64,000 bases of DNA from a plasmid, in the sequence record NZ_CP104589.1. One strand, written 5' to 3'. The notes under the pieces were generated by a model. That model had not been told where the DNA came from. It searched no databases and worked only from the letters and a program-made list of their open reading frames with translations. Positions 8,216 through 13,718 of this stretch are shown here, one piece after another. How positions within the stretch are numbered: the first letter of the stretch is position 1; every line of letters begins with the position of its first letter. Position numbers and translations under genes: made by a program.

Positions 8216-8240
8216 TGTCGTTTTCAGAAGACGGCTGCAC
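8216..8240. repeat. class 1 integron IRi (25 bp)
   Basis: exact TGTCGTTTTCAGAAGACGGCTGCAC. Confidence 0.8.
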
Positions 8241-8417
8241 TGAACGTCAGAAGCCGACTGCACTATAGCAGCGGAGGGGTTGGATCCATCAGGCAACGAC
8301 GGGCTGCTGCCGGCCATCAGCGGACGCAGGGAGGACTTTCCGCAACCGGCCGTTCGATGCGGCACCGATGGCCTTCGCGCAGGGGTAGTGAATCCGCCAG
8401 GATTGACTTGCGCTGCC

Positions 8418-9431
8418 CTACCTCTCACTAGTGAGGGGCGGCAGCGCATCAAGCGGTGAGCGCACTCCGGCACCGCCAACTTTCAGCACATGCGTGTAAA
8501 TCATCGTCGTAGAGACGTCGGAATGGCCGAGCAGATCCTGCACGGTTCGAATGTCGTAACCGCTGCGGAGCAAGGCCGTCGCGAACGAGTGGCGGAGGGT
8601 GTGCGGTGTGGCGGGCTTCGTGATGCCTGCTTGTTCTACGGCACGTTTGAAGGCGCGCTGAAAGGTCTGGTCATACATGTGATGGCGACGCACGACACCG
8701 CTCCGTGGATCGGTCGAATGCGTGTGCTGCGCAAAAACCCAGAACCACGGCCAGGAATGCCCGGCGCGCGGATACTTCCGCTCAAGGGCGTCGGGAAGCG
8801 CAACGCCGCTGCGGCCCTCGGCCTGGTCCTTCAGCCACCATGCCCGTGCACGCGACAGCTGCTCGCGCAGGCTGGGTGCCAAGCTCTCGGGTAACATCAA
8901 GGCCCGATCCTTGGAGCCCTTGCCCTCCCGCACGATGATCGTGCCGTGATCGAAATCCAGATCCTTGACCCGCAGTTGCAAACCCTCACTGATCCGCATG
9001 CCCGTTCCATACAGAAGCTGGGCGAACAAACGATGCTCGCCTTCCAGAAAACCGAGGATGCGAACCACTTCATCCGGGGTCAGCACCACCGGCAAGCGCC
9101 GCGACGGCCGAGGTCTTCCGATCTCCTGAAGCCAGGGCAGATCCGTGCACAGCACCTTGCCGTAGAAGAACAGCAAGGCCGCCAATGCCTGACGATGCGT
9201 GGAGACCGAAACCTTGCGCTCGTTCGCCAGCCAGGACAGAAATGCCTCGACTTCGCTGCTGCCCAAGGTTGCCGGGTGACGCACACCGTGGAAACGGATG
9301 AAGGCACGAACCCAGTGGACATAAGCCTGTTCGGTTGGTAAGCTGTAATGCAAGTAGCGTATGCGCTCACGCAACTGGTCCAGAACCTTGACCGAACGCA
9401 GCGGTGGTAACGGCGCAGTGGCGGTTTTCAT
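8418..9431 (-). CDS. intI1: class 1 integron integrase IntI1 (337 aa)
   Basis: [30 protein letters not shown]... canonical IntI1. Confidence 0.97.
9316..9344 (+). promoter_or_regulatory. cassette promoter Pc, weak variant with TGN-10 (TGGACA-N17-TAAGCT preceded by TGG); P2 inactive (no GGG insertion)
   Basis: TGGACA at 9316-9321 and TTGGTAAGCT at 9335-9344; downstream TTGTTA-N14-TACAGT lacks the GGG insertion. Confidence 0.6.
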
Positions 9432-9499
9432 GGCTTGTTATGACTGTTTTTTTGTACAGTCTATGCCTCGGGCATCCAAGCAGCAAGCGCGTTACGCCG

Positions 9500-9576
9500 T
9501 GGGTCGATGTTTGATGTTATGGAGCAGCAACGATGTTACGCAGCAGGGCAGTCGCCCTAAAACAAAGTTAGCGCCC
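9500..9576. other. attI1 recombination site
   Basis: ...GCCCTAAAACAAAGTTAG immediately before the first cassette. Confidence 0.6.
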
Positions 9577-9981
9577 ATGGAAGGTATCAGCCACATCACG
9601 CTTATTGTCCGCGACCTCTCGCGCATGACCACCTTCCTTTGCGATGGTCTCGGTGCGCGAGAGGTTTATGACAGTGCTGGCCACAATTACTCGCTTTCCC
9701 GCGAGAAATTCTTTGTCCTTGGTGGCGTTTGGTTGGCCGCTATGGAGGGAGTGCCGCCATCTGAGCGCTCCTATCAGCATGTCGCCTTTCGGGTGAGTGA
9801 GTCAGATCTTGCCGTATATCAGGCAAGACTTGGGTCGCTGGGCGTGGAGATTCGCCCACCCAGGCCACGCGTGAATGGAGAGGGGCTGTCCCTGTACTTC
9901 TATGATTTTGACAACCATCTGTTTGAGCTGCACACCGGCACATTGGAGCAGCGCCTTGCCAGGTACGGAGCTGGGCGCTAA
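9577..9981 (+). CDS. FosX/FosE-like fosfomycin resistance cassette (glyoxalase/VOC fold)
   Basis: MEGISHITLIVRDL...RPRVNGEGLSLYFYDFDNHLFELHTGTLEQRL matches the FosX family along its full length; starts 6 nt after the attI1 crossover. Confidence 0.8.
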   Translation: MEGISHITLIVRDLSRMTTFLCDGLGAREVYDSAGHNYSLSREKFFVLGGVWLAAMEGVPPSERSYQHVAFRVSESDLAVYQARLGSLGVEIRPPRPRVNGEGLSLYFYDFDNHLFELHTGTLEQRLARYGAGR

Positions 9982-10035
9982 CAATTCATTCAAGCCGAAG
10001 CCGCTTCGCGGCTCGGCTTAATTCAGGCGTTATGC
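9975..10035. other. attC (59-be) of the fos cassette
   Basis: GCTAAC inverse core ... imperfect palindrome ... GTTATGC. Confidence 0.4.
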
Positions 10036-10059
10036 CGCACTCACCCCCATGGAGTTTTG

Positions 10060-11584: not shown

Positions 11585-11597
11585 CCAAGAAGGTGCC

Positions 11598-12398
11598 ATG
11601 AAAACATTTGCCGCATATGTAATTACTGCGTGTCTTTCAAGTACGGCATTAGCTAGTTCAATTACAGAAAATACGTTTTGGAACAAAGAGTTCTCTGCCG
11701 AAGCCGTCAATGGTGTTTTCGTGCTTTGTAAAAGTAGCAGTAAATCCTGCGCTACCAATAACTTAGCTCGTGCATCAAAGGAATATCTTCCAGCATCAAC
11801 ATTTAAGATCCCCAACGCAATTATCGGCCTAGAAACTGGTGTCATAAAGAATGAGCATCAGGTTTTCAAATGGGACGGAAAGCCAAGAGCCATGAAACAA
11901 TGGGAAAGAGACTTGAGCTTAAGAGGGGCAATACAAGTTTCAGCGGTTCCCGTATTTCAACAAATCGCCAGAGAAGTTGGCGAAGTAAGAATGCAGAAAT
12001 ATCTTAAAAAATTTTCATATGGTAACCAGAATATCAGTGGTGGCATTGACAAATTCTGGTTGGAGGGTCAGCTTAGAATTTCCGCAGTTAATCAAGTGGA
12101 GTTTCTAGAGTCTCTATTTTTAAATAAATTGTCAGCATCAAAAGAAAATCAGCTAATAGTAAAAGAGGCTTTGGTAACGGAGGCTGCGCCTGAATATCTT
12201 GTGCATTCAAAAACTGGTTTTTCTGGTGTGGGAACTGAGTCAAATCCTGGTGTCGCATGGTGGGTTGGTTGGGTTGAGAAGGGAACAGAGGTTTACTTTT
12301 TCGCCTTTAACATGGATATAGACAACGAAAATAAGTTGCCGCTAAGAAAATCCATTCCCACCAAAATCATGGCAAGTGAGGGCATCATTGGTGGCTAA
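11598..12398 (+). CDS. blaOXA: OXA-10-family class D beta-lactamase (266 aa)
   Basis: [51 protein letters not shown]...STFKIPN...; a variant relative to OXA-10 as recalled. Confidence 0.93.
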
Positions 12399-12452
12399 CA
12401 ATTCGCTGCAGGCGCGACGGCCCTGACGGGCCGCGGCCTGAGCTCAAACGTT
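12399..12452. other. attC of the blaOXA cassette
   Basis: TAACAATTCG...GTTAAAC followed by the canonical aadA1 cassette start CATCATGAGGGAAGC. Confidence 0.4.
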
Positions 12453-12459
12453 AAACATC

Positions 12460-13251
12460 ATGAGGGAAGCGGTGATCGCCGAAGTATCGACTCAACTATC
12501 AGAGGTAGTTGGCGTCATCGAGCGCCATCTCGAACCGACGTTGCTGGCCGTACATTTGTACGGCTCCGCAGTGGATGGCGGCCTGAAGCCACACAGTGAT
12601 ATTGATTTGCTGGTTACGGTGACCGTAAGGCTTGATGAAACAACGCGGCGAGCTTTGATCAACGACCTTTTGGAAACTTCGGCTTCCCCTGGAGAGAGCG
12701 AGATTCTCCGCGCTGTAGAAGTCACCATTGTTGTGCACGACGACATCATTCCGTGGCGTTATCCAGCTAAGCGCGAACTGCAATTTGGAGAATGGCAGCG
12801 CAATGACATTCTTGCAGGTATCTTCGAGCCAGCCACGATCGACATTGATCTGGCTATCTTGCTGACAAAAGCAAGAGAACATAGCGTTGCCTTGGTAGGT
12901 CCAGCGGCGGAGGAACTCTTTGATCCGGTTCCTGAACAGGATCTATTTGAGGCGCTAAATGAAACCTTAACGCTATGGAACTCGCCGCCCGACTGGGCTG
13001 GCGATGAGCGAAATGTAGTGCTTACGTTGTCCCGCATTTGGTACAGCGCAGTAACCGGCAAAATCGCGCCGAAGGATGTCGCTGCCGACTGGGCAATGGA
13101 GCGCCTGCCGGCCCAGTATCAGCCCGTCATACTTGAAGCTAGACAGGCTTATCTTGGACAAGAAGAAGATCGCTTGGCCTCCCGCGCAGATCAGTTGGAA
13201 GAATTTGTTCACTACGTGAAAGGCGAGATCACCAAGGTAGTCGGCAAATAA
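12460..13251 (+). CDS. aadA1: aminoglycoside 3''-adenylyltransferase AadA1
   Basis: MREAVIAEVSTQLSEVVGVIERHLEPTLLAVHLYGSAVDGGLKPHSDIDLLVTV... matches AadA1 over its full length. Confidence 0.95.
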   Translation: MREAVIAEVSTQLSEVVGVIERHLEPTLLAVHLYGSAVDGGLKPHSDIDLLVTVTVRLDETTRRALINDLLETSASPGESEILRAVEVTIVVHDDIIPWRYPAKRELQFGEWQRNDILAGIFEPATIDIDLAILLTKAREHSVALVGPAAEELFDPVPEQDLFEALNETLTLWNSPPDWAGDERNVVLTLSRIWYSAVTGKIAPKDVAADWAMERLPAQYQPVILEARQAYLGQEEDRLASRADQLEEFVHYVKGEITKVVGK

Positions 13252-13379
13252 TGTCTAAAACAAAGTTAGATGCCAGATTTGGCGTTGCGTATGCTCACAG
13301 AAAATCGACAGCCGCAAGACTGTTTTTGGCAACTCATAGCCACCACTATTTCTCCTTCATACCGTAGAGGAGATTGCAC

Positions 13380-13712
13380 GTGAAGAACTGGCTCTTTCTG
13401 GCTATTGCAATATTTGGTGAGGTCGTCGCAACTTCCGCACTGAAGTCCAGCCATGGATTCACCAAGTTAGTTCCTTCTGTTGTAGTTGTGGCTGGCTACG
13501 GGCTTGCGTTCTATTTCCTCTCTCTCGCACTCAAGTCCATCCCGGTCGGCATTGCTTATGCTGTTTGGGCTGGCCTCGGCATCGTACTTGTGGCAGCTAT
13601 CGCTTGGATCTTCCATGGCCAGAAACTAGACTTGTGGGCGTTCGTTGGCATGGGACTTATCGTTAGTGGCGTCGCCGTTCTAAATCTGCTATCCAAGGTC
13701 AGCGCACATTGA
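13380..13712 (+). CDS. qacF: QacF/QacH-type SMR quaternary-ammonium efflux protein (GTG start, 110 aa)
   Basis: [33 protein letters not shown]...[10 protein letters not shown] matches QacF/H; GAGGAG RBS 7 nt upstream; IS26 begins 6 bp after the stop. Confidence 0.85.
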
Positions 13713-13718
13713 TCGGGC

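Follow-up and report, generated by a model that had tools for sequence, protein, structure and literature searches.

We find that a 64,000-nucleotide stretch of plasmid DNA (sequence record NZ_CP104589.1; hereafter the window) carries, at positions 8216-13718, a class 1 integron that very probably belongs to the In2021 lineage and adjoins the res/tnpR end of a Tn1403-type transposon. Counted from the cassette promoter (Pc), the gene order is fosE, blaVIM, aac(6')-Ib4 (aacA4), blaOXA, aadA1, and qacL. The array and all of its alleles are already known, having been published in 2023 from Pseudomonas aeruginosa plasmids, and the lead that it might hold new alleles is closed. We are confident in annotating the locus as the VIM-84 integron of pWTJH2/pWTJH32. 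Its clinical weight lies in the combination of six resistances in one plasmid-borne P. aeruginosa unit: a carbapenemase, an oxacillinase, two aminoglycoside modifiers, a fosfomycin hydrolase, and a biocide pump.

A first-pass annotation, made from the sequence alone, had placed the integron at exactly these coordinates, which run from the integron left terminal repeat (IRi) to the base before IS26. It had described a class 1 integron with a PcW-TGN-10 promoter, six resistance genes, and no 3'-conserved segment (3'-CS), all of which is borne out by motifs and gene matches. The order in which it had listed the genes is replaced by the one given above.

Integron platform and cassette units

The presence of attI1, an internal Pc, IntI1, and IRi together establishes the region as a class 1 integron. 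Pc lies inside intI1 and reads into the cassettes. It consists of TGGACA and TAAGCT, separated by a 17-nt spacer (TAAGCCTGTTCGGTTGG) that ends in TGG; this is the PcW-TGN-10 form, in which the hexamers are the weak ones of PcW and the -10 is extended by TGN. The C-to-G change that generates the extended -10 is also the one that gives IntI1 its Pro32. Jove et al. (2010) reportedly covered both the relative strength of PcW-TGN-10 and the association of this promoter with IntI1 P32. A pairing of IntI1 P32 with PcH1 was considered and rejected, as TAAGCT preceded by TGG is PcW-TGN-10.

The attI1 crossover falls between G9567 and T9568. The ATG of fosE stands 5 nt past the stop codon of ORF-11, an open reading frame in attI1, and fosE lacks a Shine-Dalgarno sequence. 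Its translation may be coupled to ORF-11, a role drawn from the literature. IntI1 (P32/H39) would recombine attC sites with attI1, and the promoterless cassettes would be co-transcribed from the single PcW-TGN-10 inside intI1, with P2 inactive. From established integron biology, cassettes farther from Pc should be expressed at lower levels.

At the other end of the integron, position 13718 is the final base and the IS26 terminal repeat begins at 13719. A motif search found neither a right terminal repeat (IRt) nor a second IRi within the window, and comparison with the 3'-CS of the IncP-2 megaplasmid pWTJH36 found no qacEdelta1/sul1 remnant there. In place of the 3'-CS and IRt that characterize a "clinical" class 1 integron, the window has IS26. 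The 3'-CS is common in class 1 integrons, but an integron can belong to the class without it.

Cassette limits were read from the ...TAAC at which an attC starts and the G|TT at which it ends. Six cassettes in a row had been proposed. The six genes are present; only four of the six units (fosE, blaVIM-84, aacA4, and blaOXA-101) are intact cassettes with a complete attC, and aadA1 is fused to qacL. In each of the four complete attCs, the bottom strand folds into a hairpin, with z values of -3.35 (fosE), -1.67 (blaVIM-84), -6.17 (aacA4), and -3.38 (blaOXA-101). Their R''/R' ends pair in all four, and the blaVIM attC is energetically the weakest. Hairpin folding was also sought in the stretch after aadA1, where none was found (z = -0.3). 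The four intact cassettes can still be mobile, while aadA1 and qacL are fixed in place because neither has a usable attC.

Encoded alleles and the published array

Alleles were called by exact full-length protein look-up in NCBI, and families were assigned with NCBIfam curated cut-offs. Each of the seven proteins (IntI1 and the six resistance products) matches a named entry with 100% identity and scores above its cut-off. IntI1 reaches 797.5 bits against PRK15417 (cut-off 435). The VIM protein is VIM-84 (WP_256823972.1) over its full length (NF012100; 590.7 versus a cut-off of 500). It differs from VIM-2 (PDB 2yz3) by precisely two substitutions, Q60R and R205L, in agreement with the first-pass estimate of about two positions. 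The OXA protein is OXA-101, again over its full length (OXA-10 family model NF000386; 618.4 versus 580), and has nine substitutions relative to the OXA-10-type chain 6skp.

The first-pass annotation had also raised the possibility that either β-lactamase is a distinct allele, to be refuted by identity with named variants. Its placement of the OXA protein among variants of OXA-10 holds; both suggestions of a distinct allele fail, since VIM-84 and OXA-101 are registered. Although residue differences of this size (two from VIM-2, nine from an OXA-10-type chain) could point to unnamed alleles in an undescribed array, such a reading is almost certainly wrong: both proteins have exact full-length entries in NCBI, and the array has been described in PMC10580930 and again in PMC11897005.

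The remaining products are equally well defined. The protein described as "fosX-like" belongs to the FosX/FosE/FosI family (NF000222; 199.6 versus 170), and its exact match gives it the proper name FosE; it scores under the cut-offs of the FosA, FosB, and FosXCC models. AAC(6')-Ib4 (434.1 versus 400) and AadA1 (597.6 versus 587) are exact matches. The quaternary ammonium compound (QAC) pump, first named qacF, is identical to QacL (WP_000800531.1; NF000067, SMR_qac_FL, 227 versus 205), and the DNA identity of qacL to a region annotated as qacF is only ~94%. VIM-84 is predicted to act on carbapenems and other β-lactams, OXA-101 on penicillins, AAC(6')-Ib4 and AadA1 on aminoglycosides, FosE on fosfomycin, and QacL on QACs.

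In AAC(6')-Ib4, the codon at 11264-11266 encodes Ser instead of the Leu found in classical AAC(6')-Ib. This Leu-to-Ser change shifts the phenotype from amikacin to gentamicin resistance. Such an effect would fit the isolates of PMC10580930, which were reported to be gentamicin-resistant and amikacin-susceptible.

Wang et al. 2023 (PMC10580930) named VIM-84 as well as VIM-85 and defined VIM-84 by Q60R and R205L relative to VIM-2. They placed blaVIM-84 as the second cassette, with fosE upstream and aac(6')-Ib4, blaOXA-101, and ant1 (aadA1) following. They derived the array from In2021, with qacEdelta1 and sul1 deleted through IS26 insertion, and located it, together with Tn5563a, on the P. aeruginosa plasmids pWTJH2 and pWTJH32 of ~100 kb. 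Our assignment to In2021 has their statement as its sole source, and a literature search on In2021 returned no relevant paper besides theirs. The window resembles pWTJH2 and pWTJH32 (CP104585 and CP104589) in intI1, in fosE as the first and blaVIM-84 as the second cassette, and in aac(6')-Ib4, blaOXA-101, and aadA1. Furthermore, it shares with them IS26 in place of the 3'-CS, a Tn1403-type carrier, Tn5563a nearby, and identical backbone proteins. No difference is demonstrable; qacL and its junction with aadA1 are left out of the papers' text.

The backbone points to the same plasmids. Exact matches to ParB, an integrase, and an endonuclease occur on only two plasmids, both from P. aeruginosa and at most 109,939 bp long. 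The VIM-84 entries UXH55966 and UXH68910 fall within the two accession series of these proteins, UXH559xx and UXH689xx. The UXH689xx series runs VIM, Fic, a 732-aa protein, DUF4942, integrase, ParB, and endonuclease, and is colinear with the window. We conclude that the window represents pWTJH32, or pWTJH2 except for its reported inversion.

It is very unlikely that the window instead represents the same integron on a different, unpublished replicon or host, and thus a new dissemination event. VIM-84 does occur in further contexts, labelled "MULTISPECIES [Pseudomonas]", and some of the backbone proteins are also found in a Pseudomonas qingdaonensis chromosome contig. However, the three backbone proteins named above are confined to two P. 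aeruginosa plasmids with a colinear gene order, the other VIM-84 contexts hold different arrays, and the combination of a fosE-first, IS26-truncated array with Tn5563a fits PMC10580930.

Three of these other contexts carry a blaVIM-84 cassette that is 100% identical over 912-913 bp. The dfrB-aacA4-blaVIM-84 array is present on a 5.69-Mb chromosome contig (L001, 9969-10881) and on a 2.9-kb contig (L003, 1145-2057), whereas a 49.7-kb plasmid (L002, CP146842.1, 9970-10881) has an integron with blaVIM-84 as its single cassette, accompanied by tniQBA. All three differ from the window in their neighbouring cassettes, integron backbones, and replicons. Thus, the blaVIM-84 cassette itself moves between integrons.

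IS26 boundary and history of the array

A close relative is the blaVIM-85 integron of the IncP-2 megaplasmids pWTJH36 and pWTJH6 (NZ_CP104591.1 and NZ_CP104587.1); both were matched, and pWTJH36 was aligned. Window positions 4479-9570 and 10029-13718 are 99.95-99.96% identical to pWTJH36, which shares the Tn1403 left arm, intI1, Pc, aacA4, blaOXA-101, and the aadA1-qacL pair with its 19-bp junction. In contrast to the window, pWTJH36 has no fosE cassette (462 bp at attI1 in the window) and keeps the qacL attC and qacEdelta1-sul1, where the window has its IS26 breakpoint. It also encodes VIM-85, whose one extra single-nucleotide change (D117N) is the sole mismatch over window positions 10029-13718. 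The segment 4479-9570 contains two further mismatches.

IS26 takes the place of the qacL attC and the 3'-CS, and identity to pWTJH36 stops at TCGGGC, 6 bp past the qacL stop codon. The IS26 transposase scores 275.6 against the IS6 family model (cut-off 125). No 8-bp target-site duplication was found at IS26, as its flanks, GATCGGGC (13711-13718) and GCTTTGCA, differ. A missing duplication is expected after an IS26-mediated deletion or cointegrate, and it leaves the identity of IS26 unaffected. On the right, positions 14539-15620 (a higA fragment and ~1 kb beyond it) are 100% identical to pWTJH17, an IncP-2 megaplasmid that belongs to the same isolate collection, and suggest an IS26-mediated exchange between co-circulating plasmids. 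The lack of a target duplication, the absence of a 3'-CS, IRt, or second IS26, and the pWTJH17-like right flank together indicate IS26-mediated deletion or recombination rather than simple insertion. An IS26 pseudo-compound transposon was considered and rejected, since the window has only one IS26 copy.

A simple IS26 insertion, or an assembly join, could in principle account for the missing 3'-CS with no real deletion or rearrangement. Insertion sequence copies are common sites of misassembly, and a single IS26 copy is present. Nevertheless, we consider both extremely improbable. Against them stand the missing 8-bp duplication, the origin of the flanks in unrelated contexts (with qacL to the left of IS26 and the truncated higA to its right), the lack of any 3'-CS or IRt throughout the window, and the identical blaVIM-84 environment reported for two independently sequenced complete plasmids.

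Comparison with pWTJH36 points to a probable history. The ancestral array would have contained blaVIM, aacA4, blaOXA-101, aadA1-qacL, and a 3'-CS. Gain of a fosE cassette at attI1 would have pushed blaVIM-84 to second place. An IS26-mediated event would have cost the array its qacL attC together with the entire 3'-CS (qacEdelta1-sul1) and linked it to a higA/Tn5563a segment, an identical copy of which is present on an IncP-2 megaplasmid of the same isolate collection.

Some points weigh against this account of the locus and its history. The fosE insertion and the IS26 event may have occurred in either order. The match to pWTJH2 and pWTJH32 was made from paper descriptions and protein identities. 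The cassette lists in the papers do not include qacL, though it is annotated in the sister plasmid pWTJH36. Finally, MexCD-OprJ was reported on pWTJH2 and pWTJH32 (PMC10580930), and no open reading frame of the size expected for a resistance-nodulation-division (RND) pump was found in the 64-kb window. MexCD-OprJ is presumably encoded in the remaining ~46 kb of the plasmid.

The aadA1-qacL junction and the surrounding plasmid

The aadA1 and qacL units meet at a hybrid junction. Sul3-type class 1 integrons (...cmlA1-aadA1-qacL (qacH)-IS440-sul3, e.g., NZ_AP024767.1) have identical, adjacent aadA1 and qacL genes, but differ in their upstream cassettes and 3' end and in keeping the full 60-bp aadA1 attC. 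Alignment to this typical arrangement shows that 19 bp have replaced the 60-bp attC. At its centre, the junction has CTAAAACAAAGTTAG, a copy of the attI1 core at 9557. In the simplest explanation, recombination between attI1 and the R'' end of the aadA1 attC left the junction as a scar.

Among PLSDB records, only pWTJH36 and pWTJH6 have the uninterrupted junction, and ~780 others have the full attC. It is absent from 5,426 complete Escherichia coli genomes, which yielded only two-piece matches containing the full attC, and exact-pattern scans detected it neither in GTDB species representatives nor in JGI metagenome contigs. Within the collections searched, the junction is confined to the WTJH plasmid lineage, and for this integron family it provides a good lineage marker. 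Neither qacL nor the hybrid junction is mentioned in the text of PMC10580930 or PMC11897005, and their annotation is the sole small addition to the 2023 description.

Judged from its sequence, the junction might also act as a functional, secondary attI1-like "simple site" for mid-array cassette insertion or exchange by IntI1, although we think this unlikely. Under such a scenario, IntI1 would have produced it by recombining attI1 with the R'' end of the aadA1 attC.

Over positions 4479-9570, where tnpA-tnpR form the left arm of Tn1403 and the integron adjoins tnpR, identity to pWTJH36 is 99.96% and begins at 4479 (Table 1). The pWTJH36 copy of the carrier was assigned to Tn1403 (PMC10580930). 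The right arm (orfABCD, Tn5393, and the right inverted repeat) is not in the window, and of the pWTJH36 sequence downstream of its 3'-CS, only weak tnpA-like similarity was found there. The Tn1403-type transposon is truncated by IS26.

Table 1. Features of the integron, its carrier, and its right flank in the 64,000-nucleotide window.
Feature	Position	Strand	Details
Terminal inverted repeat, Tn1403-type (Tn21-subfamily) transposon carrying the integron	4480-4517		38 bp; GGGGCGAATAGAGAAAACGGAAAAAATCGTACGCTAAG
tnpA, Tn3-family transposase, Tn1403-like backbone	4513-7479	-	988 aa; annotated in pWTJH36
tnpR, resolvase	7483-8043	-	186 aa, as annotated in pWTJH36
IRi	8216-8240	+	TGTCGTTTTCAGAAGACGGCTGCAC; exact motif once in window; begins TGTCGTTTTCAGAAGACGG
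intI1, IntI1 P32/H39 variant	8418-9431	-	Exact match to named IntI1
Pc, PcW-TGN-10	9316-9344	+	Exact string TGGACATAAGCCTGTTCGGTTGGTAAGCT
P2, inactive form	9435-9460	+	14-bp spacer, without GGG insertion
ORF-11 in attI1	9533-9571	+	MLRSRAVALKQS; sequence reading
attI1 end	from 9555		CCCTAAAACAAAGTTAG; CCCTAAAACAAAG then TTAG spans 9555-9571
fosE cassette	9568-10029	+	Gene 9577-9981, 134 aa; complete attC
blaVIM-84 cassette	10030-10938	+	Gene 10060-10860, 266 aa; complete attC
aacA4 cassette, AAC(6')-Ib4	10939-11577	+	Gene 10963-11517, GTG start; complete attC
blaOXA-101 cassette	11578-12450	+	Gene 11598-12398, 266 aa; complete attC
aadA1 unit	12451-13265	+	Gene 12460-13251; without its own attC
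Hybrid junction	13253-13271	+	GTCTAAAACAAAGTTAGAT, 19 bp: aadA1 attC R'' half and attI1 core CTAAAACAAAGTTAG, then qacL cassette start
qacL unit	13266-13718	+	Gene 13380-13712, 110 aa, GTG start; attC deleted 6 bp past stop codon
IS26	13719-14538	+	820 bp; 14-bp terminal inverted repeats GGCACTGTTGCAAA; tnp26 13782-14486
higA antitoxin gene, 3' fragment truncated by IS26	14539-14725	+	100% identical to pWTJH17 (intact HigA annotated there)
Tn5563a-type mercury transposon	15620-21885 (approximate)		Resolvase, ribbon-helix-helix (RHH)/PIN pair, Tn3-family tnpA, merP/merT/merR

The Tn5563a-type segment is ~100% identical to many Pseudomonas plasmids. Just past its end lies a gene for an IS256-family (Mutator-type) transposase (23554-24780), adjoined by one for a 497-aa site-specific integrase (22019-23512).

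The backbone (22000-64000) encodes a Rep_3 initiator (35068-36105), ParAB, a Fic protein, two tyrosine integrases, endonuclease I, and a UvrD-like helicase. Near matches to it in PLSDB are almost nil. Several backbone proteins are identical to ones on a 6.05-Mb P. qingdaonensis chromosome contig, pointing to a related element integrated there.

A tandem repeat at 49969-50317 comprises 9.6 copies of a 37-bp unit (GGCGATTTCACGGTGAAATTTGGGAGAAGGGTGGCCA) with 90% matches. It lies directly downstream of parB (50345-51334, minus strand), with parA at 51355-52476, and is probably the partition centromere. Positions 59040-60308 encode an IS605-family TnpB (OrfB_IS605 and a Cas12f-like TNB domain). Over the 1.4 kb around this gene, identity is 99.5% to a portion of the P. 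aeruginosa megaplasmid NZ_CP093017.1 and ~80% to several other Pseudomonas plasmids.

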